DNA of 64,000 nucleotides from a virus. Shown in pieces: positions 3,418 to 18,667 of this stretch. The first letter of the stretch is position 1. Each line of letters starts with the position of its first letter. Made by a program: the position numbers and the translations under genes. A model generated the notes under the pieces. It saw nothing but the letters and a program-made list of their open reading frames with translations. It made no database searches and had not been told where the DNA came from. Location: the IMG/VR virus record IMGVR_UViG_3300025732_000017. The stretch is one strand, 5' to 3'.

Positions 3418-3584
3418 TGTATCGCTACATTATCACGTTTGAGAAGGATGGTTATCAGCATCGTGAGTTGGCATTTGCCAGCACTGCTTTTGTTTTGGGT
3501 GAGATGCTGGCGAATGGACTATTGTCTGCGTGGAATGCGACTGTGGATGATATTCTATTTATTGAGGAGACTCCCGTATCTTGA
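3417..3584 (+). CDS. Hypothetical protein, 55 aa
   Basis: Hand-translated ORF overlapping upstream stop. Confidence 0.5.
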   Translation: MYRYIITFEKDGYQHRELAFASTAFVLGEMLANGLLSAWNATVDDILFIEETPVS

Positions 3585-3700
3585 ACATATACGATCCTAC
3601 CTAGATTCCGTACATTGCATTGCAGGTATGAGTGACTGCGTTACCATGGAAGTCAGATTTCCTCCTTGACAATTCCAGAGACACCTGTCATAGTGTGTCC

Positions 3701-3838
3701 ATGATCAAGATGAAATCCAAGACGCGCCCTGCGCGCCGTCATCCGATCTTCGCGGATCTGATGACACCTAAATACCGAAAGCGAATTGTGCCTTCCAAGA
3801 AGGTCTATTCGCGCAAGCGCCAGAAGATGGAGAACTGA
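3701..3838 (+). CDS. Small basic protein, ArfA-like
   Basis: HPIFADLMTPKYRKRIVPSKKVYSRKR resembles the ArfA core; ATG lies near the predicted +1 (possibly leaderless). Confidence 0.5.
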   Translation: MIKMKSKTRPARRHPIFADLMTPKYRKRIVPSKKVYSRKRQKMEN

Positions 3839-4005
3839 TGAAGAACTATGATTCCAAATTTCTGTGTGTCGGTGTCGGTGGACGCTATTGCGTCTGCTGC
3901 TTTGACCCACCTGGATCCAAGGCACGCCGACTGGAATACCGTCGTGCCAAGCGCGCCGCCAAGCGCGAGGCCATGAAGGTCGAGGAAATGAACCTCGAGG
4001 ACTAA
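3838..4005 (+). CDS. Hypothetical basic protein, 55 aa
   Basis: Hand-translated; stop codon is the TAA of the repeat at 4003. Confidence 0.6.
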   Translation: MKNYDSKFLCVGVGGRYCVCCFDPPGSKARRLEYRRAKRAAKREAMKVEEMNLED

Positions 4006-4087
4006 GTCCTTGATCCTACTGGGCAATTTTAGCCCTTGACAATTCCCTAAGGATGTGTCATAGTGTGTTCATAATCAAACTGACCAC

Positions 4088-4429
4088 ATGATGAAGGAGA
4101 CAAAGATGCAGGACTGGAAAATGCCCACCGAGATGCCCGCCCACGACATGGACATTGCGCTGACGATGTTCGCCGATCACCTGATCGGCATCGCGCCGTA
4201 CAGCAAGCCCAATGTCACCTTTGAGCGTGGATCCAAGTTCATGCGCGTGGTGAAGTCGGATGGTTCTTCGCGATCCGCCTATGCGTTCATCGTCATGTTT
4301 GACCATGATCGGTGGATGGTTGGTGACATTCTGAAGCCCGCGTCGTGGAAGGCGCCTGCCAAGAACTTCAGTCGCGGTAATGTGCTGAATCCGAAGTCCT
4401 ATCAGAACTTCAGCTACTACGGCCTGTGA
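4088..4429 (+). CDS. Conserved phage protein, paralog of 17193-17537
   Basis: FERGSKFMRVV...SAYAFI...GDILKPASWKAPAKN..RGNV. Confidence 0.75.
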   Translation: MMKETKMQDWKMPTEMPAHDMDIALTMFADHLIGIAPYSKPNVTFERGSKFMRVVKSDGSSRSAYAFIVMFDHDRWMVGDILKPASWKAPAKNFSRGNVLNPKSYQNFSYYGL

Positions 4430-4440
4430 GGAGATAAATC

Positions 4441-4692
4441 ATGTCCAACTTTGATCTGTCGCTGTTTGTCTGGAACAAGGACAGAAAGAGCCTGGTGATG
4501 AATAATTTCACCCATGCCTTTCCACAGGAGTTTATGGTGCGTTCGCATCACACTGGCAAGGAAGTGCGGTTTTGCCGTGTGGAGCACTTTGACGTTCTAT
4601 ATGACCAGGATCAATGGGATGGTGAGCAGATGGTGTATCGCCCGGTTGGCACAGTTGCCAATGTGGAATATGCTGCACTCTGTCGCGGATGA
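4441..4692 (+). CDS. Hypothetical protein
   Basis: ORF with GAGGAG RBS. Confidence 0.6.
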   Translation: MSNFDLSLFVWNKDRKSLVMNNFTHAFPQEFMVRSHHTGKEVRFCRVEHFDVLYDQDQWDGEQMVYRPVGTVANVEYAALCRG

Positions 4693-4697
4693 GGATC

Positions 4698-4886
4698 ATG
4701 TCCATCTATTACCGAATTGAGGAAACTGTTGGCGCACACTACATCGTGTGGAATAATATGTTCACAACGATGGAAAGTGCTGTGGAGTATATTGATCAGC
4801 ACTCAGAAAATCTGAGGGATCGTCTTCACGTGGCTGCATATGATTCCAATGGTTGGTCGCCTGTTCGAATGGGAGTTGTTTACTAA
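4698..4886 (+). CDS. Hypothetical protein
   Basis: ORF with GAGGA RBS. Confidence 0.55.
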   Translation: MSIYYRIEETVGAHYIVWNNMFTTMESAVEYIDQHSENLRDRLHVAAYDSNGWSPVRMGVVY

Positions 4887-4949
4887 TGACCCTTGACAAA
4901 GGGTTGGGCACCTGTCATAGTGTAGAAGATGAATCGCAAGGAGTTGGAA

Positions 4950-5276
4950 ATGTCGCATACCGGTTTCACCGTTGAGGTTTACATCCGCGATGCCAGGATT
5001 CGTGGCAAGATGACTCGTGGACGCATTGACTGGCTTTCCAAGAACTTCCTTGGTTTTCGTTTCCTTGAGGCCATGGATTTTCAGGTTGCTTCCGAGAAGG
5101 AAGCTGAGCAGCTGGCCAAGCAGGCGCACAAGCATCGTGGGCTTGACAAGCTGCACTTCAAGGTGCATCAGATCTATGTGACGCGCCAGAATGCGATGAC
5201 GGGCAAAGATTACCAGGAGAGGTATGACACGCCGACCTGGTGCTCGCCTTCGTCGGAGTCATACTGGTCCATGTGA
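4950..5276 (+). CDS. Conserved phage hypothetical protein
   Basis: AAGGAG RBS; C-terminal DTP..CSPSSESYWSM motif. Confidence 0.65.
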   Translation: MSHTGFTVEVYIRDARIRGKMTRGRIDWLSKNFLGFRFLEAMDFQVASEKEAEQLAKQAHKHRGLDKLHFKVHQIYVTRQNAMTGKDYQERYDTPTWCSPSSESYWSM

Positions 5277-5284
5277 GGAATCCA

Positions 5285-5479
5285 ATGTCTAATATGTCAT
5301 ACTGTCGTTTCCAGAACACAGAGAAGGATCTGCGAGATTGTCTGAATGCAATGCGTAAAGCATCCAGCATTTTTGACATGGATCTATCGAATGATGAATA
5401 TGAGGCATTCCAGGAAATGACCTCGCTTATTTTACACTTTAGCATTGAAGCTGATAGGCTTCAGAAGGATGATGTATGA
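5285..5479 (+). CDS. Conserved phage hypothetical protein
   Basis: MSNMSYCRFQNT..DL.DC N-terminus; RBS. Confidence 0.65.
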   Translation: MSNMSYCRFQNTEKDLRDCLNAMRKASSIFDMDLSNDEYEAFQEMTSLILHFSIEADRLQKDDV

Positions 5480-5844
5480 TGGCCAATCCAATCTTGGATA
5501 AGATATCCAAGCTGAATGCGGAGATTGAACAGCTTCGCGCAGAGAATAGTCATCTGCGCCGTGTGGGCATGGATAGGCCTTCTGCCGAACTACATGAGGC
5601 GGCGATGGCGGAACTGCGCGCCGAAAACGAGCGCCTCCGCTCTGAGGTGGAGGAACAGGCGCGCCTGCTGGGCATGGGCAGCGAGCGCGAAGCGAGGTTG
5701 CGCGCTCGCGTCGAGGTGCTGAGCGCAGCAATTGTTCTTATGGCGTCGCTGGCACCGAAAATGACAATCGACACCAGCGACCCACAAGGCGTGGCGCGGG
5801 ATTTCGTGGAAATTGCGCGCGCCACTCTGGAGGCCAAGCCATGA
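5476..5844 (+). CDS. Coiled-coil hypothetical protein
   Basis: LRAEN heptads; ATGA coupling. Confidence 0.6.
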   Translation: MMANPILDKISKLNAEIEQLRAENSHLRRVGMDRPSAELHEAAMAELRAENERLRSEVEEQARLLGMGSEREARLRARVEVLSAAIVLMASLAPKMTIDTSDPQGVARDFVEIARATLEAKP

Positions 5845-6125
5845 CCAAGCAATATGAATCCAGTTCCAGTTATGCACAACTGAATGCCGATATTACCGCA
5901 GTAAAGAAAGACAAAATCATCGCAGATCTTATAGCTGAAAACACCGATCTTCGTACCCGCGGTACGATATTAGAAGAGGCAGTTCGGTTTTACGCGGACG
6001 TTCACACATGGAAGTCTGCATCGGTCTTCATGTGTGGCCATGACGGAAACTCTAGGGCTACGATTGATCGCGGAGAAAAGGCTCGCGGAGCCCTAAGATC
6101 CTTGGGAAAGCCTTCGGCAAAATAA
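5841..6125 (+). CDS. Hypothetical protein
   Basis: ATGA-coupled ORF. Confidence 0.55.
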   Translation: MTKQYESSSSYAQLNADITAVKKDKIIADLIAENTDLRTRGTILEEAVRFYADVHTWKSASVFMCGHDGNSRATIDRGEKARGALRSLGKPSAK

Positions 6126-6187
6126 GCCCTTGACATTGCCCAAGACCTAGTCTATACTGTGTTCATAGATCAACAAGGAGAACCCAA

Positions 6188-6634
6188 ATGGCGTTCATGA
6201 ACCAGACGATCAAGTCCGAGCTGCTTCCCGGTATCAAGGCCGTGCTCCGCAAGTATGGCCTCAAGGGTACCGTCTCCGTTGGAAACCACACCGCGCTTTC
6301 CGTCACGATCCGCGAAGGCAAGCTGGATTTCATCGGTGACGCCATCTCCGTGCTGCGCTCGCCACAGAATGCCAATATCCCCTTCCTGTCGGATTCTATC
6401 GCATCCCTCCTGAAGGAACAGTCGCTGGATGTCAATACGTACCACATCCGTTCCAACCACTCCGGCATCTGCCAAAAGGCTCTGCTGGAGCTGCACCAGG
6501 CCATGAACGATGGTAATTGGGACAAGTCCGACCCACAGACCGACTATTTCAACGTGGGCTGGTATACCTACATCAATATCGGAAAGTGGCGCAAGCCCTA
6601 CCGCTGCACCGCTCAGATGCCAAAGGTGGCATAA
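6188..6634 (+). CDS. Conserved phage protein, paralog of 10560-11021
   Basis: MAFM.Q..K..L.PGIKAVLRKYGLKG...DPQTDYFNVGWY in both. Confidence 0.8.
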   Translation: MAFMNQTIKSELLPGIKAVLRKYGLKGTVSVGNHTALSVTIREGKLDFIGDAISVLRSPQNANIPFLSDSIASLLKEQSLDVNTYHIRSNHSGICQKALLELHQAMNDGNWDKSDPQTDYFNVGWYTYINIGKWRKPYRCTAQMPKVA

Positions 6635-6637
6635 ACG

Positions 6638-6781
6638 ATGACTGAAACGTTCGGCGCCTTTCTAATGATCGTGACCTATCTTATCGGATTGGTCACGGGT
6701 TATATCATATGGGCGCCTATGTCCAATTTCAAAAGAGGATTCGTGGACGGAATCACCCTCAGATTTATTTGGAAACGATGA
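6638..6781 (+). CDS. Small membrane protein, 47 aa
   Basis: Hand-translated; hydrophobic N-terminal helix. Confidence 0.5.
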   Translation: MTETFGAFLMIVTYLIGLVTGYIIWAPMSNFKRGFVDGITLRFIWKR

Positions 6782-6846
6782 AAATCCGTCCTTGACATTG
6801 CCCAAGATCTAGTCTATACTGGATTCATACTTAGGGAGATCCTATC

Positions 6847-7341
6847 GTGTTCCAGGTTTTCGTCGGCTCCAAAAGCCAAGCCCGCAACCTCGTCCGCATC
6901 CATAATGCGACGCATTGGATCTCCCTGCTCGACCACGACGATACCCATCCACAGATGGATCGTCAGGATCATGTGCTCCGCCTCCTGCTGAATTGCGACG
7001 ATCAGCTAAAGGTCACGGATCCACACGCACCAACCCGCAACCAAGTCCAGCAGATCCTGGATTTCACCCGCAACCTCACCGATGCAACCATCGTCGTGAA
7101 CTGCTTTGCTGGTGTGGCCAGATCTACCGCGGCTGCGCTGGCCATTCTCGTCCAGCACCATGGATCCATAGATCACGCTATAAACCTGCTCCGCGCAGAT
7201 CGCCCCCAGGCCATGCCAAATCCAGTCATCAGCCAGTTCGCTGACGATATTCTAGGCCTCGATGGAAAGCTTTTCGCAGCCTCCGAGAAGGTGGCACAGA
7301 GCCGTGTTCTGGAGATAATTGACGATATGGACAATTCGTGA
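6847..7341 (+). CDS. Protein tyrosine/dual-specificity phosphatase-like protein
   Basis: CX5R loop NCFAGVARSTAAA; own promoter and RBS. Confidence 0.8.
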   Translation: MFQVFVGSKSQARNLVRIHNATHWISLLDHDDTHPQMDRQDHVLRLLLNCDDQLKVTDPHAPTRNQVQQILDFTRNLTDATIVVNCFAGVARSTAAALAILVQHHGSIDHAINLLRADRPQAMPNPVISQFADDILGLDGKLFAASEKVAQSRVLEIIDDMDNS

Positions 7342-7351
7342 GAAACCCACA

Positions 7352-7668
7352 ATGAACATCGATGACCAAGTCTGGAATCAAGTCTGGAATCAAATCTATG
7401 ATCAACTCTTGAATCAAGTCAGGAATCAAGTCTATGATCAAGTCGAGGATCAAGTCAGGAATCAAGTCAGGAATCAAGTCTGGACTCAAGCCAGGAATCC
7501 ACAATGAACATCGATGACCAAGTCTACAATCAAGTCTGGGATCAAGTCTGGGATCAAGTCTGGAATCAAGTCTGGCTTCAAGTCTCGATTCGAGCCTGGG
7601 ACCAGGTTCGGAATCAATATCTTCAAGATGCCAATTCCAGGGCGCCAGAGAACACGGACTCCGCCTAA
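7352..7668 (+). repeat. QVW mini-ORF array C: ORFs 7352-7507 and 7504-7668
   Basis: MNIDDQVWNQVWNQ... and MNIDDQVYNQVWDQVWDQ...; ATGA coupling. Confidence 0.75.
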
Positions 7669-7752
7669 GTCATTGATTCGACTCGGTAATTTCGAGGCTT
7701 GACAAGGCACAGTTTTTGCCCTACACTCAGTCCATAAAACCAAAACAAGGAA

Positions 7753-8022
7753 ATGGCAATGTTTATCTATGAAGTCACTAGATCCACGTGGGGTAGTTCT
7801 GGTAACGACGATCAGCCATTTGGCCTCTATGAATCCAAGGATATAGCTGATAAGCTGGCTAAGTCTCTTATGGAGGTTGATTTTCCTGTTACGGTTACCA
7901 TTACACAGCATGAAGTCTTTAGTGAGCCTAAGGTAAACGGAGAATGGAGCGGCAGAAAGAAGTGGCGATATGAAAACGAACACTGGATTCGCTGGGATAA
8001 ATTCTATGGTCACCGAGAATAA
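7753..8022 (+). CDS. Hypothetical protein
   Basis: Cassette ORF; stop is the TAA of the next repeat. Confidence 0.65.
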   Translation: MAMFIYEVTRSTWGSSGNDDQPFGLYESKDIADKLAKSLMEVDFPVTVTITQHEVFSEPKVNGEWSGRKKWRYENEHWIRWDKFYGHRE

Positions 8023-8105
8023 TCCATTGATTCGACTGGGTAATTCTTGCCCTTGACAAAAGGCCCGATCTAGGTTATTCTGTGACTCTGAGAAAGGAGA
8101 TGGTC

Positions 8106-8480
8106 ATGAATCTGAAGGTTCGGCAGCTGGAAACCGCATTGCTCTTTGACAGGCCGACGCCTGTTCCTGAGGGCTTTCGTCTGATCGGCCGAGATGGCTT
8201 TTATTGTCGCGGTGAAGAGGTCTGGTGGGAATACAAGGGCAAGGGCTATCTCTATGGCCAAAGCCTGAATTGCCGCGAGGATTTTGAGTACAGGCTGCGA
8301 GTGAATGATGAGGCCATCCTCATCCCACGCGAGGTGGCGGCCATGAAGACTATTCTGAAGACGACGCGGGATGCCAATGTTCGCAAGGCATTGTCGGCGC
8401 GCCTTCGCCTTCATGAGGAGGCCTATGAACTGCGCCGTATCCGTCGTGGTGTTCGTCGTGTCATGGGACCCGTTGATTGA
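8106..8480 (+). CDS. Hypothetical protein
   Basis: Cassette ORF with AAGGAG RBS. Confidence 0.65.
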   Translation: MNLKVRQLETALLFDRPTPVPEGFRLIGRDGFYCRGEEVWWEYKGKGYLYGQSLNCREDFEYRLRVNDEAILIPREVAAMKTILKTTRDANVRKALSARLRLHEEAYELRRIRRGVRRVMGPVD

Positions 8481-8601
8481 TGGCTAATTCCAGCCCTGAA
8501 GATGCCAATAATCCAGGAAAGATGCCAATTTCGTAACGTATGACGCAAAAGATGCCAATTCCAGGGCGTCAGAGAACACACAGAGACACAGGGAAACGAT
8601 A

Positions 8602-8857
8602 TATGCGCTATACAAAAGCTGACATTCCGCGGCGACCAGGTCGCAATTGGCACAAACGACGCATCATCGGCGGCATATGGATGGCAGAACAGCGATGGTA
8701 CCAAACGCCTGCGCTGCGCACCAGAGAGCGAATGGAGGACCTACAGCACCTCGCCGGACAGCCCAGGCGACGCCAGATGCCAAGGATCCTGCTATCGACG
8801 CTGCTCTGGCACGCCGCCGAGAACCGAAAAAGCCGCCTGAGGCGCCTAAGCCATTGA
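8602..8857 (+). CDS. Arg-rich hypothetical protein (start uncertain)
   Basis: Part of ORF 8540-8857; weak RBS. Confidence 0.3.
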
Positions 8858-8932
8858 TTCCATTAGGTAATTCCAGCCCTTGACAAGGCGCCTGATCTAG
8901 CATATTCTGTGACTCTGATTGCGGAGGTATCA

Positions 8933-9154
8933 ATGTCTCAGACGTTCTACACGGTCCATGTTCCTGACGGCGACGACCCTGGTCTGGGTAATTGGAAGCT
9001 GAGCACGGCCAGCCTGGCTATCGCCTTTGCACAGGATCTCGGCGTCAGGTGTGAGGTCCGAGTCCATGATGGCGACAAGATTCCCATGCGTCTATGCACT
9101 GTTCTCCCTGGGACCTTCGATGGCCATCCTAATCTTATCTGGCCCTATCCGTGA
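8933..9154 (+). CDS. Hypothetical protein
   Basis: Cassette ORF with GGAGG RBS. Confidence 0.6.
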   Translation: MSQTFYTVHVPDGDDPGLGNWKLSTASLAIAFAQDLGVRCEVRVHDGDKIPMRLCTVLPGTFDGHPNLIWPYP

Positions 9155-9259
9155 CGTGGACTTCTAACCCATTGATCTGATTGGGCAATTCCAGCCCTTG
9201 ACAAGGCGCCTGATCTAGCATATTCTGTGACTCTGATTGCGGAAGAGGAAAGGAAACCG

Positions 9260-10159
9260 ATGGCTACCATGAACCACACGGTCAGCTTTGACCGGGCTTG
9301 CGGCAAGTATGTCGCCATGTGCGATGGCAAGGTTGTCACCAAGACCAAGTCGCTGAACCGTGCGAAGCGCCTGCTCCGTATGCACCTCGACGGCCTCCGT
9401 GAGGTTGCCAAGGCTGAGGTTGATGCGGGTCTCAATTTCTCGGTGGCTGATCGGTTCACCTTTCTCGAGGCCCTGACCACGATGGTCGCGAACGGCACCT
9501 CGCCGTCGGCTATTGTCACGGGTGAGGGTGGTATCGGCAAGACGCACACCGTCACCAAGACCCTCGCCTCCATGGGCTTTGTCAATTGCATGGAGATCCC
9601 CGAGGGCGTGTCGGTGCCAACTCGCAAGACCTACACCATGGTCAAGGGCTACTCCACGCCCTATGCGCTGTACCGTACGCTGTGCGAGAATGCCGACCGC
9701 ATCGTGGTGTTCGATGACTGCGACAGCATCCTCAAGGACCCGACGGCCATCAACCTGCTCAAGGCGGCGCTCGACAGCTACTCCAAGCGTATCGTCTGCT
9801 GGCAGTCCGAGGTCAAGGGCTCCGACCTGCCCACGTCCTTCGTGTTCAATGGTGGGGTGATCTTCATCTCCAACTACACGCTGGGCACGCTGGATCAGGC
9901 CGTGCGTACCCGTGCGCTGTGCGTGGATCTGAGCATGACGGCCGACCAGAAGCTGGAGCGCATGGAGCAGATCCTGCGCGAGCCGGATTATCGCACCGAC
10001 GTGTCGCTATCCATGAAGCTGGAGGCGCTGGGTGCGATCCGCGAGAACCTGTCGAAGGTCAAGAACCTGTCGCTCCGTACGCTGAAGCAGGTGATCGACG
10101 TTCGCAAGGGCAACCGCAAGGACTGGGCCAAGCTGGCTCTGTATGTGATGTCCCAGTAA
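9260..10159 (+). CDS. AAA+ ATPase
   Basis: Walker A GEGGIGKT, Walker B IVVFDDCD, sensor FISN, Arg finger RTR. Confidence 0.85.
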   Translation: MATMNHTVSFDRACGKYVAMCDGKVVTKTKSLNRAKRLLRMHLDGLREVAKAEVDAGLNFSVADRFTFLEALTTMVANGTSPSAIVTGEGGIGKTHTVTKTLASMGFVNCMEIPEGVSVPTRKTYTMVKGYSTPYALYRTLCENADRIVVFDDCDSILKDPTAINLLKAALDSYSKRIVCWQSEVKGSDLPTSFVFNGGVIFISNYTLGTLDQAVRTRALCVDLSMTADQKLERMEQILREPDYRTDVSLSMKLEALGAIRENLSKVKNLSLRTLKQVIDVRKGNRKDWAKLALYVMSQ

Positions 10160-10259
10160 CCCCTTGATCTGACACGGTAATTCCAGGGGTTGACAAAGTA
10201 CCAATCCCTGGATATACTGGTACCAAGATTGGAAAACAGGATTCGGGAAAGGAATCTTC

Positions 10260-10442
10260 ATGCTCATTGGAATTTTGAACTACGCTACCTCTTTCATGTT
10301 GGCCTTTGCCGCCGCGTGCTGGAATCGGGGAGGCTGGGCTAATGCGTTGATCATTAGTGCGCTTCTCCTGTTGTCCTTGTTCAATCTAATCCTCGGGGCC
10401 ATGCACTACCCCGGACTCCTGGTGTTGCCGCCAAAACTGTGA
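10260..10442 (+). CDS. Small two-TM membrane protein
   Basis: Two hydrophobic segments; follows cassette promoter. Confidence 0.6.
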   Translation: MLIGILNYATSFMLAFAAACWNRGGWANALIISALLLLSLFNLILGAMHYPGLLVLPPKL

Positions 10443-10559
10443 GAGGCTAACCGAAGGCACTCATACCTAACCACTTGATCTGACACGGTAATTCCAGGGG
10501 TTGACAAAGTACCAATCCCTGGATATACTGGTATCAAGATTGGAAAACAGGAGAAACGA

Positions 10560-11021
10560 ATGGCGTTCATGGATCAGAAGCGGAAGGCGCAGCTCGCGCC
10601 TGGTATCAAGGCGGTGCTTCGGAAGTACGGCCTCAAGGGTTCGCTGAGGGTGGGCAACCACACCTCGCTGAGCCTGACCCTGACCGAGGGTTCGCTGGAC
10701 CTCATCGGTAATGGGGTGGCTGTGCTCCATCGTGAGGCTGACACCTACCCGCATGATATCAAGGGCAAGTGGATGCGTGAGGCGGCTGCCTACATGCAGA
10801 AGACCCAGTCCACGGATGTCAACACCTACCATGCGAAGGATGCGTTCACGGGCGTCTGCCAGAAGGCGATCCTGGAGCTGATCGCGGCGATGAATGTGGG
10901 CAACCACGACGAGTCCGATCCTCAGACTGACTACTTCAATGTCGGCTGGTACATCCATGTGAACGTCGGTCGGTGGAACAAGCCCTACCGGTTCACCGGC
11001 GCCAATCGGAAGGTGGCCTGA
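10560..11021 (+). CDS. Conserved phage protein, paralog of 6188-6634
   Basis: Shared N- and C-terminal motifs. Confidence 0.8.
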   Translation: MAFMDQKRKAQLAPGIKAVLRKYGLKGSLRVGNHTSLSLTLTEGSLDLIGNGVAVLHREADTYPHDIKGKWMREAAAYMQKTQSTDVNTYHAKDAFTGVCQKAILELIAAMNVGNHDESDPQTDYFNVGWYIHVNVGRWNKPYRFTGANRKVA

Positions 11022-11023
11022 TC

Positions 11024-11206
11024 ATGACGCGCAAGCAGCGATTGGAGCAGGCCCTATCCCATCTTGGGAAGGTGGAGGATCTTCTGAATCCCAAGGGTGT
11101 CGTGCCTGGACCGGACATGCTCCTCACCTCCCTGGAGAGGACCATTGAGGAGGTGGAATACCAGCTGGCTATGCTGGAGATGGCGGAAAGTGCCAACCAG
11201 GAGTAA
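11024..11206 (+). CDS. Hypothetical protein
   Basis: ORF; stop is the TAA of the repeat at 11204. Confidence 0.6.
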   Translation: MTRKQRLEQALSHLGKVEDLLNPKGVVPGPDMLLTSLERTIEEVEYQLAMLEMAESANQE

Positions 11207-11296
11207 CTGGTTGATTCCACTCACAAATTTCCACCCTTGACTAGGGTGCCAATACCAAGTATTCTGTGAACATACTGAAAGACAAAGGAGATACCA

Positions 11297-12052
11297 ATGC
11301 GTAACTATGAAATGGTTCTTATGGCCCTGAAGTCGGGCGAGACCAAGACGGCTACGGACCTCAAGGCGGAGCTGCCGGGTCTGGAGTGGTGGAACATGCA
11401 CAAGTATGTGGCGCGTGCCAAGTACCTGGCAGGTGCTGAGATTGAGCTGATGAAGGCTGGCAAGCCGCTCAAGGCTGCCCGTGCGCGGGATGCTGAGACT
11501 CTGCGCCTGGTGAATGCCGACAAGTTCAAGGCCTGGTCGCCTGTCACCAAGACTGGTGGTCCGCTGTTCCGCAAGGCCAACCCGAAGGCCAAGACCCAGA
11601 AGGCCAAGGTGAAGGCTGCGAAGCCTCCGAAGCCTGCGAAGCCGACCAAGACCAAGATCCCTCCGGCGATCCAGGCGAAGCTGAATGCCCAGCATGCCAA
11701 GTCCAACTCGCTGATCGCCGCTGCGATGGCGAAGGATCCGTGGCTCGGTCGTCGTGGCCGTGTCACCCAGGAGGCTACCAATCTGGTCAATCCGGTGGCG
11801 CCGCCCGATCAGCCCGGTCATGGTGAGCTGAAGGGTGCCAATGTCGTGGATATGATCAAGGCTGAGCTGGCTGCGACTGCGCCGGCGAAGGGTACCAAGA
11901 AGGCTGCTGCTCTTCCGCGTGGTCCGAAGGCGACGCCTGCGCCTGCTCCGGTCAAGGTCGAGCGGGTGTCGGATGTGGTGACTCCGCTGTCGGATGATCC
12001 GCTGGACATTCCGGACTTCCTCCGTATCAAGTCCACCAAGACGGAGGAGTGA
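11297..12052 (+). CDS. Lys/Ala/Pro-rich basic protein, H1-like tail
   Basis: KAKTQKAKVKAAKPPKPAKPTKTK; strong RBS and promoter. Confidence 0.7.
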   Translation: MRNYEMVLMALKSGETKTATDLKAELPGLEWWNMHKYVARAKYLAGAEIELMKAGKPLKAARARDAETLRLVNADKFKAWSPVTKTGGPLFRKANPKAKTQKAKVKAAKPPKPAKPTKTKIPPAIQAKLNAQHAKSNSLIAAAMAKDPWLGRRGRVTQEATNLVNPVAPPDQPGHGELKGANVVDMIKAELAATAPAKGTKKAAALPRGPKATPAPAPVKVERVSDVVTPLSDDPLDIPDFLRIKSTKTEE

Positions 12053-12055
12053 GGA

Positions 12056-12205
12056 GGCGCCCAGCACAACCCTGGGCTAGCGTGCTTCCGCGCGAATAAA
12101 GCAGGTGGTTCCTGCAGGAAGGCAAGTCTGCTCGGCGTAGGAGCGACGGTGGGATGGGCACCGCAGGTTAGCCGGACAAAGGGATCGGACTAACCACCCA
12201 TCACC
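12056..12205 (+). ncRNA. Candidate structured RNA
   Basis: Consecutive hairpins plus a long interrupted stem (ggtg/gatggg/ggttag vs ctaacc/cccatc/acc). Confidence 0.4.
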
Positions 12206-12296
12206 TAAGCCCTTGATCTGATTGGGCAATTCCAGCCTTGACAAAGTACCAATTCTCGCCTATACTGGTACCAAGATCGGAAAGAGGAGAGCAGAG

Positions 12297-12518
12297 ATGG
12301 TTCGCAAGTATACCAACATGGTTCTGGAGATGGTTGAAGAGGGCATCCTGGACAAGGATGTGGTCATCATGGCCTGCCTGAAGTACATGTCGGAGGCTGA
12401 GGTCCGTGACATGGCCGAGGCGAACGGGTTCGTCCCCGAGGATGAGGAGGAGGAGATTCGGTCCGACTATGAGGCCAATCGCACCTATGAGCGAGTGCGA
12501 GTGGTGGCTGGGCAGTAA
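12297..12518 (+). CDS. Hypothetical protein
   Basis: Cassette ORF; start corrected to follow the RBS. Confidence 0.65.
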   Translation: MVRKYTNMVLEMVEEGILDKDVVIMACLKYMSEAEVRDMAEANGFVPEDEEEEIRSDYEANRTYERVRVVAGQ

Positions 12519-12607
12519 GCCCTTGATCTGATTGGGCAATTCCAGGGCTTGACAGAGCGTCAATTCTCGCCTATACTGAGTTCATGATCAAGCAAAGGGA
12601 GACGGTG

Positions 12608-12853
12608 ATGCAGACGTTCCGTGTTGATATCGACCTCGACGGCGATAGCACTATTGGCGAGTTCCTGGAGACTCTCGCGGAGTATCGCGGCTCGGCGCAA
12701 ATTGTGTCCTATGACGCGGCTCCCGACGCTGGCGGTTGCCCGACGATGGTGCTGGAATTCACGTCCTATGAGGTTGCGCTGGAGTTCGCCATGGAATGGT
12801 TCGGCGAGTCGTTTGAGGATGCCAAGGAGTACGTGGAGACGATTACGGTGTAA
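12608..12853 (+). CDS. Acidic protein, paralog of 16858-17109
   Basis: MQTFRV.IDLD...YDA.PDAGG...EFTSYE...EYVETITV. Confidence 0.75.
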   Translation: MQTFRVDIDLDGDSTIGEFLETLAEYRGSAQIVSYDAAPDAGGCPTMVLEFTSYEVALEFAMEWFGESFEDAKEYVETITV

Positions 12854-12941
12854 CCCCTTGACCTGACAAGGCTTTTCCAGGGCCTTGACAGCGCCCTGGT
12901 TTCGCCCTATACTGGTACCAAGATCGGAAAGGGAAACAGAG

Positions 12942-13115
12942 ATGACCAAGACCAAGACCCCGACCAGGAAGCCCCGCAAGCCCACCATCCTCTCTTCCTG
13001 GGAATGGTCACAGTATCATCAGCAGATGATCGAGTACCTCGAGGAGAAGCTGGAGCGCAGGGAGCAGAAGATCGCGCAGCTGGAACGCCAGATCGAGCGC
13101 CTGCAGGGTAAGTAA
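12942..13115 (+). CDS. Small coiled-coil protein
   Basis: Cassette ORF; basic N-terminus. Confidence 0.6.
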   Translation: MTKTKTPTRKPRKPTILSSWEWSQYHQQMIEYLEEKLERREQKIAQLERQIERLQGK

Positions 13116-13200
13116 CCCATTGATCTGACACGGCTTTTCCAGGGCTTGACAGAAGCCTGATCCAGCCCTATACTGGTACCAAGATCGGAAAGGGAAACAG

Positions 13201-13941
13201 ATGCAGACGAACCTCCTCACTCGCGGCAACCCCAAGGTCCTGAAGGGCGAGAGCCAGGGCTACCTGACCTTCATCCTTCACCTGGCGCCGGCGTCGCTGT
13301 CGGGCTACAACACCTGCGCCGCGGCGACTGATGGCTGCAAGCTGGCGTGTCTGAACACCGCTGGTCGTGGTGGCATTCCCAATGCTCGCCCCGTGACCGT
13401 GCAGGCTCGCAATGGTGCCATGACGGTGTCCAACGTGATCCAGGCGGCTCGCATCCGCAAGACCGTGTGGTTCTTCCAGGACCGCGTCGGCTTCATGGCT
13501 CAGCTGGTCAAGGAAATCCGTGCGGGCATCCGCTATGCTCAGAAGATGGGCCTGATCCCCGTGTTCCGTCTGAATGGCACCTCCGATCTGCGCTGGGAGA
13601 GTGTCGGTGTGGATGGTGCGCGCAATGTCATGGAGCTGTTCCCGGACGTGCAGTTCTATGATTACACCAAGCTGTCCAATCGCAGGGACCTGCCTGCCAA
13701 CTACAAGCTGACCTTCTCCCTGGCGGAGAATAACGACCTCCAGGCGTGGGCTGCTGCTTCGGCTGGTCTGAACGTCGCTGCGGTGTTCCGTGGCAAGCTG
13801 CCCGCGACCTTCATGGGTCGCACGGTGATCAATGGTGATGACTCGGATCTGCGTTTCCTTGATCCGGTGGGTGTGGTGGTTGGTCTGAAGGCGAAGGGCA
13901 AGGCGAAGCGGGACACGACGGGCTTTGTGAGGGCTGCCTAA
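13201..13941 (+). CDS. GP88-family protein (radical-SAM-like Cys motif)
   Basis: NTC.....GC...C, RLNGTSD, FYDYTK, DLRFLDP motifs. Confidence 0.75.
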   Translation: MQTNLLTRGNPKVLKGESQGYLTFILHLAPASLSGYNTCAAATDGCKLACLNTAGRGGIPNARPVTVQARNGAMTVSNVIQAARIRKTVWFFQDRVGFMAQLVKEIRAGIRYAQKMGLIPVFRLNGTSDLRWESVGVDGARNVMELFPDVQFYDYTKLSNRRDLPANYKLTFSLAENNDLQAWAAASAGLNVAAVFRGKLPATFMGRTVINGDDSDLRFLDPVGVVVGLKAKGKAKRDTTGFVRAA

Positions 13942-14029
13942 GCCATTGATCTGATTGGGCAATTCCAGCCTTGACAGAGCACCAGTTTCGCCCTATACTG
14001 GTACCAAGATCGGAAACAAGGAGACAGCG

Positions 14030-14263
14030 ATGGCCAAGTCCAAGACCAAGTCCAAGACCAAGTCCAAGACCAAGTCCAAGACCAAGGTCTATGTCGTGCT
14101 GAATGAGTCGAAATGGCCCACGACGGTTGTGGGTGTGTTCAGTACGCGCGGCCTCGCCATGGCAGGCGCCAAGAAGGAGCGCCAGAAATGGCCGAACATC
14201 GGGATTCTTCGGATTTCCCATCACATGGTTGATAATCCCGAATGGTACGTGGGAAAGCCTTGA
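14030..14263 (+). CDS. Basic protein with KSKT repeats
   Basis: aagtccaagacc x4 perfect copies at 14036-14083. Confidence 0.65.
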   Translation: MAKSKTKSKTKSKTKSKTKVYVVLNESKWPTTVVGVFSTRGLAMAGAKKERQKWPNIGILRISHHMVDNPEWYVGKP

Positions 14264-14345
14264 TCTGACACAGCTTTTCCAGGGCCTTGACAGAGCACCA
14301 GTTTCGCCCTATACTGGTACCATGATCGGAAACAAGGAGACAGCG

Positions 14346-14603
14346 ATGACCAAGATCCGCTTCACGGCCCCCTCCCCTCGCGCCGACCGCATCCACGGCC
14401 TGACCAAGATGGGTCGCGCCATCGTGGACTACTTCGCGGCTCGCCCGGGTCAGGTGATCTCCCGCACCACGGTGGAGCTGCACCTCGCCTCGCGTGGCTT
14501 CAAGCGCCCCGCGGTCACCGCGACGGTCTGCTCGGATCTGGCCCACTCGGGTCATCTGAAGCCGATGCCGTTCGGCATGTACCAGTTCCGCGCTGCGGCC
14601 TAA
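14346..14603 (+). CDS. Possible winged-helix protein
   Basis: Cassette ORF; helix-turn-helix-like layout. Confidence 0.5.
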   Translation: MTKIRFTAPSPRADRIHGLTKMGRAIVDYFAARPGQVISRTTVELHLASRGFKRPAVTATVCSDLAHSGHLKPMPFGMYQFRAAA

Positions 14604-14617
14604 GGAAAGGATTGATC

Positions 14618-14728
14618 ATGCATACCATCACGTTCCTCGCTCAGTCGCTGGCTCTGGCTGGTGTTCTGTTCGCCGCTGGCGTCGGCCTGGTCGCGCTGAT
14701 CGGGTTCTTCGCTGATCGCAACCGCTAA
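14618..14728 (+). CDS. Single-TM micropeptide, 36 aa
   Basis: MHTITFLAQSLALAGVLFAAGVGLVALIGFFADRNR; AAGGA RBS. Confidence 0.55.
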   Translation: MHTITFLAQSLALAGVLFAAGVGLVALIGFFADRNR

Positions 14729-14739
14729 GGAGCAAGACC

Positions 14740-15021
14740 ATGTTTAGGATCACCGAAGGCAGGGGTTTTCAGATGACGTTCGCAAACGGATGGACGGTCT
14801 CTGTCCAATGGGGTGCTGGCAATTACTGTCCGAACCACCACGTCCTTCCGTCTGGTAAGTCGGAGAGGGCTTATGAAGATATGCAGCGTAAGCTGGGCGA
14901 GGAGGGCGTGCTTGTCGCGGAGGCAGGCTGGTGGAAGGGCTCCGGTGACGTGGAGGTTAGTGGTTTCATGACGCCCGACCAGGTTCTGGCCCTCATGGTC
15001 GAGCTGGCAGCTAGGGAGTAA
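14740..15021 (+). CDS. Conserved phage hypothetical protein
   Basis: GFQMTFANGWTVSVQWG..NYC motif; RBS. Confidence 0.65.
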   Translation: MFRITEGRGFQMTFANGWTVSVQWGAGNYCPNHHVLPSGKSERAYEDMQRKLGEEGVLVAEAGWWKGSGDVEVSGFMTPDQVLALMVELAARE

Positions 15022-15025
15022 GACC

Positions 15026-15115
15026 GTGGTCTGCATTTCCGTGGACACGCTGGCTCTGTTCGCATTTGGTATCAGTCTGGTCGTGCTGGCTCGACTGATC
15101 ACCCGCAACCGCTAA
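15026..15115 (+). CDS. Single-TM micropeptide, 29 aa
   Basis: GTG start, GGAG RBS, ends RNR like 14618. Confidence 0.5.
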   Translation: MVCISVDTLALFAFGISLVVLARLITRNR

Positions 15116-15125
15116 GGAGATGCAC

Positions 15126-15221
15126 ATGGATTGCCTTCAGCCGCTAGTTTTCTTTCTGACCTACGCTGCGGTGCTCGGCATCGCCGTGTGGGTTGTAATC
15201 GCCATCCGTAATGAGGAGTAA
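15126..15221 (+). CDS. Single-TM micropeptide, 31 aa
   Basis: AAGGAG RBS; hydrophobic core. Confidence 0.55.
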   Translation: MDCLQPLVFFLTYAAVLGIAVWVVIAIRNEE

Positions 15222-15225
15222 GATC

Positions 15226-15423
15226 ATGACAATGGATTCCAGGGAGCTGGCGAAGGCGCTGGCTGAGAAGGCGAAGGCTGCTTCCATTCCCTATTCGGAG
15301 TATGAGGCGAAGGTGGACTATCCGTTCGCCCTGGGCTATCTGACAGGCACCGTGCAGGATCTTCTGCTCCGCCTGTCGCCAGGCCAGCGCGAGACTATTG
15401 CGAAGCAGTACGGTATCAGCTGA
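15226..15423 (+). CDS. Hypothetical protein
   Basis: GAGGAG RBS. Confidence 0.6.
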   Translation: MTMDSRELAKALAEKAKAASIPYSEYEAKVDYPFALGYLTGTVQDLLLRLSPGQRETIAKQYGIS

Positions 15424-15433
15424 GGAGACAGAG

Positions 15434-15664
15434 ATGACCGAGACCCTGGAGCTGGCGAAGGCGCTGGCTGAGAATGAAGAGCTGCGCGTGGCCAATAAAG
15501 AGTTGGTGTTGGGTATCACCACCATAACTCTCCGCCTTCTGGAAGATATTGATCGACAGCGCGCGGAGAATGAAGGGCTGCGCGCGGAGAATGAAGGGCT
15601 GCGCGCAGAGCTGCGCCAGGCGATCAAGGAGCTGGCAGATTGTGAACAGTTCAGCGACTACTAA
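15434..15664 (+). CDS. Coiled-coil protein with 21-nt tandem repeat
   Basis: RAENEGL x2; GAGGAG RBS. Confidence 0.6.
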   Translation: MTETLELAKALAENEELRVANKELVLGITTITLRLLEDIDRQRAENEGLRAENEGLRAELRQAIKELADCEQFSDY

Positions 15665-15775
15665 CTCGCCGGCTCCGACCGCTAACCCCTTGATCTGACA
15701 CGGTAATTCCAGCCTTGACATAGGCCTGATCCCACCCTATACTGAGTACATAAGGTGGAAACAAGGAGACGACAG

Positions 15776-15985
15776 ATGACCCAGATCCCCGCAACCAAGG
15801 TCTATATCCTCTTCGTGGAAGAGACCGCGCATGGTGGTTGGGAGTGGGAGACCCATCTCCATGGTGTATATGCGACGCGGGAGAAGGCTCAGGAGGCCCG
15901 TAAGGCTCTCGCAGCCAAGAGGGCGTTCTCGATTCGCTGCGGTGAGTGGAAGTCGCGCATCCGCGCTGTGCCTCTGCATGCCTAA
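15776..15985 (+). CDS. Hypothetical protein
   Basis: Cassette ORF. Confidence 0.65.
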   Translation: MTQIPATKVYILFVEETAHGGWEWETHLHGVYATREKAQEARKALAAKRAFSIRCGEWKSRIRAVPLHA

Positions 15986-16077
15986 CCCCTTGATCTGACA
16001 CGGCAATTCCAGCCTTGACATAGGCCTGATCCCGCCCTATACTGAATACATAAGTTGGAAACACAAGGAGACGACGA

Positions 16078-16404
16078 ATGGCGAAGCTGCTGATCCAGAC
16101 CCAGGTCTATGAGAACTACGGCGCCCATGATTGGAACGGCGAGGGCGAGTGCCCGCAGTACTGGAAGCCGAAGTTTGGTTCGGACTACGTCCTTCCCAAT
16201 TTCACCGCCTTCACCGACGCGGCCTCGGTGGTCGAGGCGCTGAAGCCTCAGGTGGAGGCCAACGACCACAGCTGGCGCGAGTGGATCATCCACTGGGAGG
16301 TGCTGGCCGATGACCAGCCGACGCCCTGGGAGGCCGACCAGCTCCGCTGGGATGGTCGAGTGACCTTCCCAGCCAAGGTCCTCACCCTCCCGGTGGCGGC
16401 CTGA
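16078..16404 (+). CDS. Conserved phage protein
   Basis: TQVYENYGAHDW.GEGECPQYWK.K.G..Y motif. Confidence 0.7.
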   Translation: MAKLLIQTQVYENYGAHDWNGEGECPQYWKPKFGSDYVLPNFTAFTDAASVVEALKPQVEANDHSWREWIIHWEVLADDQPTPWEADQLRWDGRVTFPAKVLTLPVAA

Positions 16405-16423
16405 ACGGAACAAGGAGACAGAG

Positions 16424-16767
16424 ATGACGCAGACCTTCGATTTCGGCTTCGGCCCTGTCCCGGCTCACAAGCACCCGAATGGCGGTGGCTGGGTCGCCGA
16501 CACCGCTTATGTCGCCGACACCGCTTATGTCGGGCCTGATGCTCGGGTCTTCGGCAATGCTGTGGTCGGCAGCAATGCTCGGATCTACGGCTATGCTCGG
16601 GTCTACGGCAATGCCTGGGTCTGCGACGATGCTCGGGTCGGCGACAAGGCTCTGGTCTCCGATATGCTATAGTCAACGGCAATGCTGTGGTCTCCGGCAA
16701 TGCTGTGGTCGGCGGCAGCGCTTGGGTCGGCGGCAATGCTTGGGTCACCGAGGGTACTCACACCTAA
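16424..16767 (+). pseudogene. Hexapeptide-repeat (left-handed beta-helix) protein with frameshift near 16664
   Basis: VFGNAVVGSNARIYGYARVYGNAWV repeats continue in the -1 frame (AIVNGNAVVSGNAVVGGSAWV) to TAA 16765. Confidence 0.6.
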
Positions 16768-16857
16768 CCCATTGATCTGACACGGCAATTCCAGCCTTGA
16801 CCTGGCGCCAGATCCGCCCTATACTGAGTACATAAGTTCGAAACAAGGAGAGCAGAG

Positions 16858-17109
16858 ATGCAGACGTTCCGTGTTGTGATAGACCTTGACAGCGAGTGGA
16901 CTCTTGGCGAGTTCCTCAACCTGCTCTCTGAGCATGGCTCGCCGCGGATTGTGTGCTATGACGCGACTCCCGACGCTGGCGGCAGCCCGATGATGATCCT
17001 TGAATTCACGTCCTATGAGGATGCGCTGGGGTTCGCCCAGCTTTGGTTCGCCGAGGACGAGGCGCCATCGCGGATGTCGGCGGAGTACGTGGAGACGATT
17101 ACGGTGTAA
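16858..17109 (+). CDS. Acidic protein, paralog of 12608-12853
   Basis: Shared motifs. Confidence 0.75.
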   Translation: MQTFRVVIDLDSEWTLGEFLNLLSEHGSPRIVCYDATPDAGGSPMMILEFTSYEDALGFAQLWFAEDEAPSRMSAEYVETITV

Positions 17110-17192
17110 CCCCTTGATCTGACACGGCTTTTCCAGCCTTGACAGAGGCCTGATCGGGACCCTATACTGAGTACATGATCAAGGAGACAGAG

Positions 17193-17537
17193 ATGACCCA
17201 GACCTTCACTGCCCCGCACGACCTCGACCTCGCGCTGACGGCCTACGCCGATGCGCTGGAGCAGAAGCGCACCGCGGCGGCCAACATGGCCAGCTACCAC
17301 GTGTCGGTCACCTTTGAGCCCGGGTCCAAGTACCTGCGCGTGGTGATGGCTGATGGGTACAGGACCACGGGCACGCACCGGTCCGCCTACGCCTTCATCG
17401 TGGCGAAGGACATGGGCCAGTTCAAGGTGGGTGACATCCTGAAGGCGGCCTCCTGGAAGGCTCCGGCCAAGAACTTCGCCCGGGGCAATGTGTTCCGCCC
17501 GGAGACCTACGCGAAGCACAGCCCGTACGGGCTTTGA
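17193..17537 (+). CDS. Conserved phage protein, paralog of 4088-4429
   Basis: FEPGSKYLRVV..SAYAFI..GDILKAASWKAPAKN..RGNV. Confidence 0.75.
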   Translation: MTQTFTAPHDLDLALTAYADALEQKRTAAANMASYHVSVTFEPGSKYLRVVMADGYRTTGTHRSAYAFIVAKDMGQFKVGDILKAASWKAPAKNFARGNVFRPETYAKHSPYGL

Positions 17538-17557
17538 TCCGAACCAAGGAGTCTATC

Positions 17558-17740
17558 ATGAACCAGCCGACCAAAGCCTTCCTCATCCAGCTCCGCGACC
17601 TCTGCCGCGCCCATGGCGTGGATTTCTCTGCTGACCTGAATGGCGTGTCCTTCACCAGCGCCGATGAAAGCCCGATCTACTGGGTCCACGCCGACGTGGA
17701 GAGCCTCGAGGACCTCGAGGCCCAGCTGGCGCAGGACTGA
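17558..17740 (+). CDS. Hypothetical protein
   Basis: AAGGAG RBS. Confidence 0.6.
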   Translation: MNQPTKAFLIQLRDLCRAHGVDFSADLNGVSFTSADESPIYWVHADVESLEDLEAQLAQD

Positions 17741-17833
17741 TCTAAGCCATTGATCTGACACGGCTTTTCCAGCCTTGACCTGGCGCCAGATCCGCCCTAT
17801 ACTGAGTACATGATCAAGGAAAGGAAGACAGAG

Positions 17834-17914
17834 ATGAACCGGATCGTGATCGCCTGCCACCTGTTCAATACGGCCGTGGCTTTTACCTACCTCGCGACGT
17901 GGCTGTTCAAGTAA
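17834..17914 (+). CDS. Hydrophobic micropeptide, 26 aa
   Basis: Directly behind promoter 17775 and RBS. Confidence 0.5.
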   Translation: MNRIVIACHLFNTAVAFTYLATWLFK

Positions 17915-17946
17915 GCAACCACCCCATCCCAACCAAGGAGATCCCT

Positions 17947-18660
17947 ATGACCGTGACGTATCACGACCACTCCACCACCCCCTTCACCTACCGCACCGAC
18001 GCCTTCAAGGGCGCGACCCTGGCTGTCTGGTCCGAGTGCATCCGCATCATGTCGGATGTGTGGGCGCACGAACAGCGCGCCCTGGTGTGGGATGAGGAAG
18101 CCGGCAAGTTCGGCACCCTCTCGCTGGACAATTCCGAATTCTCCAGCAAGACCCAGCCCCAGCACGCCACCGTGGACGCGCCGGCCGAGCTGATCGCCCG
18201 CTACCGCGATTCCGTCATCGCCCGCAACCACACCCGCCTCCTCGAGGCCTTCAAGGCCAAGAAGGAAGAGGAGCGCATGGCCGTCCGCACCGGCGCCGTC
18301 GTCCTGGTCAAGCGTGGCCGCAAGGACATCGGCAAGGTGGGGAAGGTGGTCTTTATCAAGGACATGCCCTACTCCACCGGCTGGCGCTCCCACCTGGCGC
18401 CCAAGGCCTGCATCGCCCTCGATGGTCAGAAGACCACCGTCCAGGGCCGCTATGGCAAGACCTTCGACCGCTACACCAACACCATCTGGGTGTGGGTGAA
18501 GAACCTGGACCTGGCGAAGGTGCCGGCGCCCTATGAGGTCACCGACGAGGATCTGGCGCGCATCCGCCAGCAGGCTGAAGCCGAGGCTGACATGCAGCTG
18601 ATCCGCTGGGGCATGAAGGAGGTGTCGTGGCGCAAGCCGGCGAGCTGGCAGGCAGCGTGA
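17947..18660 (+). CDS. Protein with KOW/SH3-like central domain
   Basis: TGAVVLVKRGRKDIGKVGKV; AAGGAG RBS. Confidence 0.6.
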   Translation: MTVTYHDHSTTPFTYRTDAFKGATLAVWSECIRIMSDVWAHEQRALVWDEEAGKFGTLSLDNSEFSSKTQPQHATVDAPAELIARYRDSVIARNHTRLLEAFKAKKEEERMAVRTGAVVLVKRGRKDIGKVGKVVFIKDMPYSTGWRSHLAPKACIALDGQKTTVQGRYGKTFDRYTNTIWVWVKNLDLAKVPAPYEVTDEDLARIRQQAEAEADMQLIRWGMKEVSWRKPASWQAA

Positions 18661-18667
18661 GGTGGCG

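Follow-up and report, generated by a model that had tools for sequence, protein, structure and literature searches.

A dense array of hairpin-less PeSL-type promoter cassettes in an uncultured, distant T4-like phage

Examination of a 64,000-nucleotide (nt) stretch of viral DNA, hereafter the window, revealed on its + strand an array of about 43 small genes preceded by 23 predicted sigma70-type promoters, most of which are embedded in copies of one repeated unit. The window corresponds to positions 66436-130435 of the 196,948-bp IMG/VR virus record IMGVR_UViG_3300025732_000017, which is rated complete by CheckV. Comparison with related contigs from metagenomes showed that the genes between units come and go, and that the units themselves are mosaic. 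The array is a variant, without hairpin or terminator, of the published promoter-early stem-loop (PeSL) cassettes of T4-type phages, and is thus an instance of a published mechanism. Homologous recombination between the repeated early-promoter units is the most likely mechanism of its rearrangement, and one that we regard as quite probable.

The density of promoter-like sequences in this region is far beyond chance. Exact matches to TTGACA-N16-18-TATACT number 14 in the 64 kb, against 0.04 expected, and 13 of them lie inside the array, all on the + strand. A consensus scan of positions 1-20000 returned 44 promoter-like sites, against 14.0 +/- 4.1 in shuffled sequences. With a relaxed genome-wide scan 54 sites were found, of which 23 form an unbroken + strand run from 3666 to 17775 with a spacing of 261-1428 nt. 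These are exactly the 23 co-oriented, near-consensus promoters of the first-pass annotation, at the positions it implied. Its further statement that every promoter sits inside the repeat holds for 19 of the 23, which have the upstream box described below, and fails for those at 3666, 4893, 6130 and 6792, which share with the unit only an A/T patch, the -35 element, spacer, -10 element and leader. Across the 197-kb genome the strict box pattern has 14 matches, every one on the forward strand and within the array. Gene calling guided by ribosome-binding sites (RBS) gave about 43 small + strand genes (g numbers below) in modules of one to six; the number of genes per promoter, in order, is 2, 3, 4, 2, 3, 1, 2, 1, 1, 1, 2, 1, 1, 1, 1, 1, 1, 6, 1, 2, 1, 2 and 3. 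The array and its units are as follows.

3666-18992, + strand: whole early-gene array (as predicted), 23 promoters and about 43 small genes
3666-3709, + strand: box-less promoter unit, TTGACA-17-CATAGT
4003-4105, + strand: full unit; the gene ending at 4005 uses its TAA as stop
4893-4949, + strand: box-less promoter unit
6130-6187, + strand: box-less promoter unit, near-twin of 6792
6792-6846, + strand: box-less promoter unit
7666-7758, + strand: full unit, TTGATT variant; the gene ending at 7668 uses its TAA as stop
8020-8105, + strand: full unit; the gene ending at 8022 uses its TAA as stop
8847-8932, + strand: full unit; the preceding gene ends with the TGA of TTGATT (8855-8857)
9165-9259, + strand: full unit, twin of 8847; g18 lies between the two
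10157-10259, + strand: full unit; its TAA is the stop of a 299-amino acid gene
10468-10559, + strand: full unit, 98% twin of 10157; the g20 slot lies between the two
11204-11296, + strand: full unit, divergent box
12206-12296, + strand: full unit; site of an extra g37-like cassette in contig L159
12516-12607, + strand: full unit
12851-12941, + strand: full unit, TTGACC box variant
13113-13200, + strand: full unit; preceded by the g26 slot
13939-14029, + strand: full unit, left partner of the g28 slot
14253-14345, + strand: full unit without TAA; g28 stops at the TGA in TTGATC
15683-15775, + strand: full unit
15983-16077, + strand: full unit, twin of 15683
16765-16857, + strand: full unit; right side of the joint in contig L165
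17107-17192, + strand: full unit, 18-nt spacer
17743-17833, + strand: full unit, core identical to 16797

A full unit spans about 100 nt and opens with the box TAA-N4-TTGAT(C/T)-TGA(CACGG/TTGGG)-Y(AA/TT)TTCCAG, followed by 2-4 G/C bases, the -35 element, a 17-nt spacer and the -10 element, with an A/T patch at about -42 and promoter cores reading C-TTGACA and C-TATACT. Beyond the -10 element, a leader of about 30 nt carries an AAGGAG-type RBS 5-10 nt ahead of the ATG. Among 119 unit copies, 94 of them distinct, this anatomy is well conserved: in the distinct copies the TAA is found in 82, TTGAT(C/T) in 93, the 17-nt spacer in 92, TTGACA in 79 and TATACT in 74. The near-identical promoter pairs pointed out at first pass are confirmed, 10190/10501 being 98% identical over 85 nt and 8880/9198 93% identical over 80 nt; identical 29-mers are present in 13971/14287, 16797/17775 and 8880/9198, and a single base separates 15715 from 16015.

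The box also closes translation. Its TAA, the TGA of TTGATC and the TGA of TCTGA occupy three different frames, and 20 nt suffice to close every frame in 72 of the 94 distinct units, against 0.7% of control 20-mers. All eleven stops which had been read as coinciding with the TAA of a unit are ends of RBS-supported + strand open reading frames (ORFs), and two more genes (ends 8857 and 14263) stop at the TGA within TTGAT. Overall, upstream ORFs use the stop at offset 0, +8 and +13 in 64, 23 and 6 cases, respectively. The TAA is retained in 7 of the 8 window units in which it is not the stop in use. Such closure of three frames by a 5' box, with use of all three stops, looks new.

A hairpin is absent from the unit. 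The first-pass annotation had described the repeat as lacking the stem-loop of PeSL cassettes, and folding agrees: for 64 distinct units the RNAalifold consensus structure is empty and the mean minimum free energy z-score is about -0.8. No covariation was found between the C-rich N4 and the G-rich bases preceding the -35 element, and terminator-like sites in positions 1-20000 are not above background (17, against 15.5 in shuffles). The tetranucleotide GATC is overrepresented about 4-fold in the units, with 42 occurrences where 10.3 would be expected, and stands at three fixed places, in box, spacer and leader; a Dam-type methylase to account for this excess was not detected in the phage.

Relatives were sought with the box. 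A scan of 241 million metagenome records yielded 40 contigs (labels L...), many of which contain arrays with as many as 10 exact matches to the box (13 units by profile), and about 33 of the 40 are relatives at 67-99.5% nucleotide identity. Contigs L139, L151, L146 and L166 partly reproduce the gene order of the window at 98-99.5% identity. Six contigs (L141, L152, L156, L157, L163 and L168) have only a 23-nt box in common with the window, no genes, and are probably chance hits. Within IMG/VR only one other contig has the box: G001 (55.7 kb), part of a related T4-like phage that is 40-95% identical in its core proteins. Its one complete unit combines the spacer found at window position 13146 with the leader found at 16015, and its genes are homologues of g33, g28, g40 and g4, in that order. 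A loose promoter pattern gave more than 100 single hits in IMG/VR, among which only L009 is convincing by whole-unit profile (E=3e-21); two further IMG/VR loci are marginal by the same profile (E about 1e-4). The strict box was found once in 185,579 prokaryote genomes, in a coding region of a Shimia metagenome-assembled genome with neither promoter nor homology, a hit that we attribute to chance.

Gene order in the array is not fixed among these relatives, and breakpoints do not avoid the repeat: loss, replacement, insertion, duplication and reordering of cassettes were all seen in relatives of 70-99% nucleotide identity. Gene g28 is absent from L131, L145 and L159 by way of a single hybrid unit, g18 and g20 are absent from L135, each exactly between a pair of units, and L165 joins position 16029 to 16845 with the loss of g36 and g37. 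Elsewhere a slot holds something else. The g20 slot is occupied by a g38-like gene in L162 and by other DNA in L154; the g26 slot of L142 contains different DNA (284 nt, against 166 nt in the window); and the g28 slot of L132 and L155 contains 582 nt of other DNA. No convincing + strand ORF was found in this last filling (L132:617-1199 and L155:5251-5833, oriented copies), which could be a minus-strand gene or a non-coding RNA. In L159 an extra g37-like cassette is inserted at unit 12206 with a copy of the unit on each side, and L136 carries three g25-family cassettes in tandem. A reordered lineage at 67-86% identity reads g42'-g25-g24-g39-g27-g30-g33-g36-g19-g43, its downstream flank being collinear with the window; it is represented by five contigs (L130, L136, L140, L149 and L167) from five metagenome assemblies, with a consistent order.

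Three further observations concern this region. A non-coding gap of about 150 nt (12053-12205) separates g23 from unit 12206; it is precisely missing in L144, where 12056 is joined to 12203, and is retained in L159, where the extra g37-like cassette lies just beyond it. Positions 8552-8580 are a near-copy of the QV gene's 3' end (7628-7660) and include AATTCCAG with no -35 element, and the same piece of about 68 nt (8520-8587) follows g19 in L154 and L162; the segment around 8480-8590 looks like a recombination scar or a degraded unit. In the more distant contig L150 (Ga0194115_10003382; oriented copy 750-5520), homologues of g2, g24 and g31 and a full promoter unit are on opposite strands, so that a cassette can also be inverted relative to a unit.

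The joints coincide with units to a considerable degree. Homology-block edges in the array fall within units in 80 of 142 cases, the units spanning 21% of the array; a unit stands at the contig joint in 54 of 81 junction types and at 35 of 44 distinct novel adjacencies. The proposal made at first pass, that genes are shuffled by way of the repeat, stands as regards the rearrangements and the position of most joints, but has to be narrowed: four of the 23 promoters lack the full repeat and about 20% of novel adjacencies are unit-free.

Hybrid units can be read directly at several joints. In nine junction types, 78-98 nt of overlapping homology make up a single hybrid unit. Base by base, the L159 joint takes its box from unit 13939 and its leader from unit 14253, with exchange somewhere within the 59 nt which the two units have in common; the L135 joint was read in the same way, and the orthologous promoter there has a different spacer half. 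Across the 94 distinct units there is free combination of box, spacer and leader types (as many as 11 box/leader combinations accompany a single spacer type), and all four gametes are present in 67% of informative site pairs. A statistic akin to the pairwise homoplasy index is 0.553, against 0.675 in permutations (0 of 2000 as low), neighbouring sites being more compatible than distant ones, and incompatibility is spread across all segments of the unit with no single core. Such mosaic units fit repeated homologous exchange or gene conversion, and the spread of incompatibility speaks against a single site-specific crossover point.

The box contains, in addition, a candidate binding site for integration host factor (IHF), the consensus of which is WATCAANNNNTTR (PMC8942017). 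Read on the reverse strand, GATCAA-N4-TTA matches the IHF core ATCAA-N4-TTR, with 12 of 13 consensus positions. The core occurs 18 times in the array in a single orientation, against 0.25 expected, and is present in 17 window units at a fixed orientation and distance upstream of the -35 element; per-base conservation of the box mirrors the IHF consensus. As a putative site that is always in one orientation, this match looks new. It resembles IHF-assisted sigma70 promoters, of which Mu Pe and lambda pL are phage examples, in matching the consensus at a fixed upstream position and orientation. It differs from them in having only a weak form of the A/T tract that typically flanks strong IHF sites, and in that the box doubles as a translational stop, a role not known for IHF sites.

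Taken together, the region would be the early-gene hyperplastic region of a T4-like phage, built from hairpin-less cassettes of the PeSL type. Each unit would primarily be a strong promoter for host RNA polymerase carrying the primary sigma factor, and some 43 small takeover or accessory genes would be transcribed in one direction without terminators in between. Since at least 19 units are alike over 60-100 nt and a UvsX-type recombinase is present, cassette recombination is to be expected. Unit-unit homologous recombination, both inside one genome and among relatives infecting the same cell, would allow cassettes to be lost, duplicated, inserted, replaced or put in a new order, and every product would bring its own promoter and RBS. 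The box TAA-N4-TTGATC-TGA would stop all three frames, so that any upstream ORF is closed at the joint; at its distance of about 65 bp from the predicted start, on the upstream side, the box may in addition bring in a host DNA-bending protein. Shuffling may be a by-product of repeated promoters in a recombination-proficient phage and not a selected function.

A number of points weigh against homologous recombination between units as the account of the array. On the same contigs a unit is found at 35 of the 44 novel adjacencies and at 14 of the 24 conserved ones (80% vs 58%, Fisher p=0.09), and with so weak an enrichment the units are not claimed as sole or strongly preferred breakpoints. The contigs were retrieved by the box pattern, so that repeats at joints are partly ascertained and over-represented. 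Nine novel adjacencies are unit-free; four of these, when read, fall at short stop-RBS-start words such as TAAGGAG-AAGA-CATG and AACCAAGGAG, with 10-17 nt of microhomology. The high similarity of adjacent units could be explained by recent tandem duplication alone, and short-read assemblers may skip between near-identical repeats, mimicking clean deletions. As to the putative IHF site, the match is a post-hoc one, C takes the W position of the consensus in 82 of 94 units, only 4 window units have a W there, and a search for an HU/IHF homologue in the phage found none encoded.

Several of these points would be expected if the units were only promoters, alike through functional constraint and tandem duplication, with turnover at any gene boundary of a hyperplastic region. 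The unit-free joints at microhomologies, the non-significant enrichment over gene boundaries and the inflation of repeat counts by box-based retrieval all agree with it, and the paralogous pairs g3/g39, g10/g21 and g25/g38 show that duplication occurs. Against it, spacers and leaders unconstrained by promoter function are identical between units driving unrelated genes, single hybrid units stand exactly at the loss junctions, box, spacer and leader types are freely recombined, and the orthologous promoter of L135 has its different spacer half; we therefore consider this explanation rather unlikely. A dedicated site-specific system resembling integrons, in which the TAA-N4-TTGATC box is the recognition site of a phage or host protein that, perhaps aided by IHF as a cofactor, excises and inserts cassettes together with their promoters, would account for a box conserved beyond known promoter needs, for the TAA kept even where unused (7 of 8 window units; 82 of 94 overall), for inter-cassette homology that starts sharply at the TAA and for the fixed orientation of the IHF core, IHF being a cofactor of several site-specific recombinases. 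It is nevertheless very improbable, given exchange points spread along the whole unit, the existence of unit-free junctions, the absence of an attC-like hairpin and the absence of the box from other genomes besides the one chance hit in a coding region. Integrase, transposase and recombinase domains were not found in the 20 largest array ORFs (Pfam) or in the 10 scanned with PHROGs, the smallest ORFs not being scanned; an integron or recombinase reading was rejected on this ground.

That the cassette variation is mostly an artefact of short-read assembly, through mis-joining or collapse at repeats of about 100 nt, is suggested by the many short contigs ending within a unit and by clean deletions that fall between those pairs of units most alike, for which a de Bruijn graph gives no unique path. 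We argue instead that most variants are real, because junctions recur in independent assemblies (the g28 loss in L131, L145 and L159; the alternative order in five contigs), replacements bring DNA that is not in the window, and flanks 3-30% different from the window denote different genomes. Moreover, G001 has yet another order, and the window order itself is partly reproduced by the four contigs at 98-99.5% identity. An artefact on this scale appears extremely improbable. A more ambitious view takes the 24-nt box as an evolved universal cassette joint, an all-frame stop that also recruits an IHF-type protein stimulating both early transcription and recombination; we hold this to be distinctly unlikely. 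If true, it would mean hairpin-free exchange of promoter-bearing cassettes with a site preference, fed by a GC-rich gene pool distinct from the AT-rich backbone.

Homologous recombination between units finds its closest parallel in the PeSL cassettes, defined in RB49/phi1 and later in T4/PST and KVP40/nt-1 (Arbiol et al. 2010, PMC2839356; Comeau et al. 2014, PMC4122927). A PeSL consists of an A/T region, a stem-loop terminator, a sigma70-like early promoter, a Shine-Dalgarno (SD) sequence and an ATG; PeSLs cluster in hyperplastic regions at indels and replacements, give mini-circles via crossovers inside the element, and their crossovers are thought to depend on the phage's own recombination, needing <50 bp of homology (PMC2839356, PMC4122927). 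The precedent put forward by the first-pass annotation was well chosen, the array agreeing with PeSLs in each tested respect but the stem-loop. Both belong to T4-like phages and to a variable region of small genes, mostly of unknown function, the downstream flank being collinear in relatives of the array. Both combine an A/T patch, a near-consensus sigma70 promoter with a 17-nt spacer, an SD and an ATG (in the array as judged by sequence); in both, the elements flank genes inserted, deleted, replaced or displaced, crossovers fall inside the element and homologous recombination is the proposed mechanism. The array differs in having no stem-loop or terminator upstream of the promoter, so that its cassettes are not transcriptionally insulated, and in carrying in place of the hairpin the 24-nt three-frame-stop box with its IHF-like core. 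It also differs in its density (23 promoters in 14 kb), its GC-rich cargo and its very distant T4-like lineage with a probable alphaproteobacterial host. Particular to this array are thus the hairpin-free three-frame-stop/IHF-like box, the depth of environmental variants and the GC-rich cargo.

Two other systems offer partial likenesses. Integrons likewise consist of small co-oriented cassettes, one gene each, that are delimited by a recurring element and differ between relatives in content and order. Their cassettes are promoterless, have a folded attC and are moved by IntI, whereas array cassettes carry their own promoter, lack a conserved hairpin and an integrase domain (in the scanned ORFs), and have exchange points spread along the unit. 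The host-takeover module of Bacillus phage SPO1 comprises about 24 small early genes with about a dozen strong host-type promoters, and shares with the array a dense, one-directional arrangement of such genes, with a strong host-sigma promoter and a strong RBS for each gene or every few genes. It belongs to an unrelated family and is not known as a shuffling substrate or to have a common upstream box; the resemblance is functional only.

The phage that carries the array encodes in the window the T4-type baseplate proteins gp5, gp6 and gp8, a PstS-like protein and a radical-SAM protein, and also possesses a UvsX-like RecA. By gp6 its nearest isolates are the Pelagibacter phages Mosig and HTVC008M and the Methylophilales phage Melnitz, at about 40% amino acid identity, cyanomyophages coming next; judged by these sequences it is a T4-like myovirus distantly related to the Pelagibacter and Methylophilales myophages. 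With megablast, the array has zero nucleotide matches to GenBank phages. A permuted transfer-messenger RNA (tmRNA) gene lies at 30705-31073 of the window (Rfam alpha_tmRNA RF01849, 127 bits; tag ANDNYASEMALAA), and no other family was found in an Rfam scan of window positions 1-32000. A consensus TTGACA-17-TATACT promoter at 30709-30737 overlaps its annotated start. Because an alpha_tmRNA gene is found on the phage, a probable alphaproteobacterial host is pointed to, without proof. The sigma70 consensus of S. meliloti is CTTGAC-N17-CTATAT (PMC2873474), and the array promoters fit this alphaproteobacterial pattern. The genome contains 34 tRNA genes, at 47.9-60.0 kb of the complete record (G000). 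Codon usage is split: array genes g19-g43 have a GC content of 0.60 and a third-position GC content (GC3) of 0.78, against 0.37 and 0.24 for the baseplate genes (window 9200-18700 vs 40000-58000). The early cassettes may be matched to a GC-rich host or to a foreign gene pool, and the late genes may rely on the phage tRNAs.

Most products of the cargo genes belong to no known family, as judged from the 20 largest array ORFs with Pfam and 10 array ORFs with PHROGs. Two of the exceptions are the following.

6847-7341, + strand: dual-specificity protein phosphatase (Pfam DSPc, E=9e-9)
13201-13941, + strand: GP88-family protein

The phosphatase is a plausible candidate for a host-takeover enzyme. 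Other families represented are two DUF7717 proteins, a hexapeptide-repeat protein and a weak AAA-like protein of phrog_1250. Homologues of two cargo genes are scattered among unrelated phages of Proteobacteria and mycobacteria. The hexapeptide-repeat (beta-solenoid) gene at 16424-16780 is built of 18-nt DNA repeats, and its frame seems to switch near 16670-16690 (ORFs 16424-16672 and 16687-16767), which may reflect a frameshift or a variant repeat length. Tiny genes composed of 12-nt repeats (QV-type tetrapeptides) occur in runs that border and interrupt the array, at 7352-7668, 19032-20460 and 73-2584, and the same repeats are also present, at variable length, in L137, L146, L151, L160, L166 and L167.

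These findings extend shuffling of the PeSL type to a very distant, uncultured freshwater branch of T4-like phages, the relatives being lake phages, with evidence at the level of populations sampled in many metagenomes and not of one phage pair. They suggest that hairpin and terminator are dispensable, since a three-frame stop box can act as the 5' boundary of a cassette. The split in codon usage between early cassettes and late genes bears on the reason why such phages carry large tRNA sets. Finally, some 40 predicted early genes of unknown function, each with a defined expression signal, become candidates for roles in host takeover or anti-defence.

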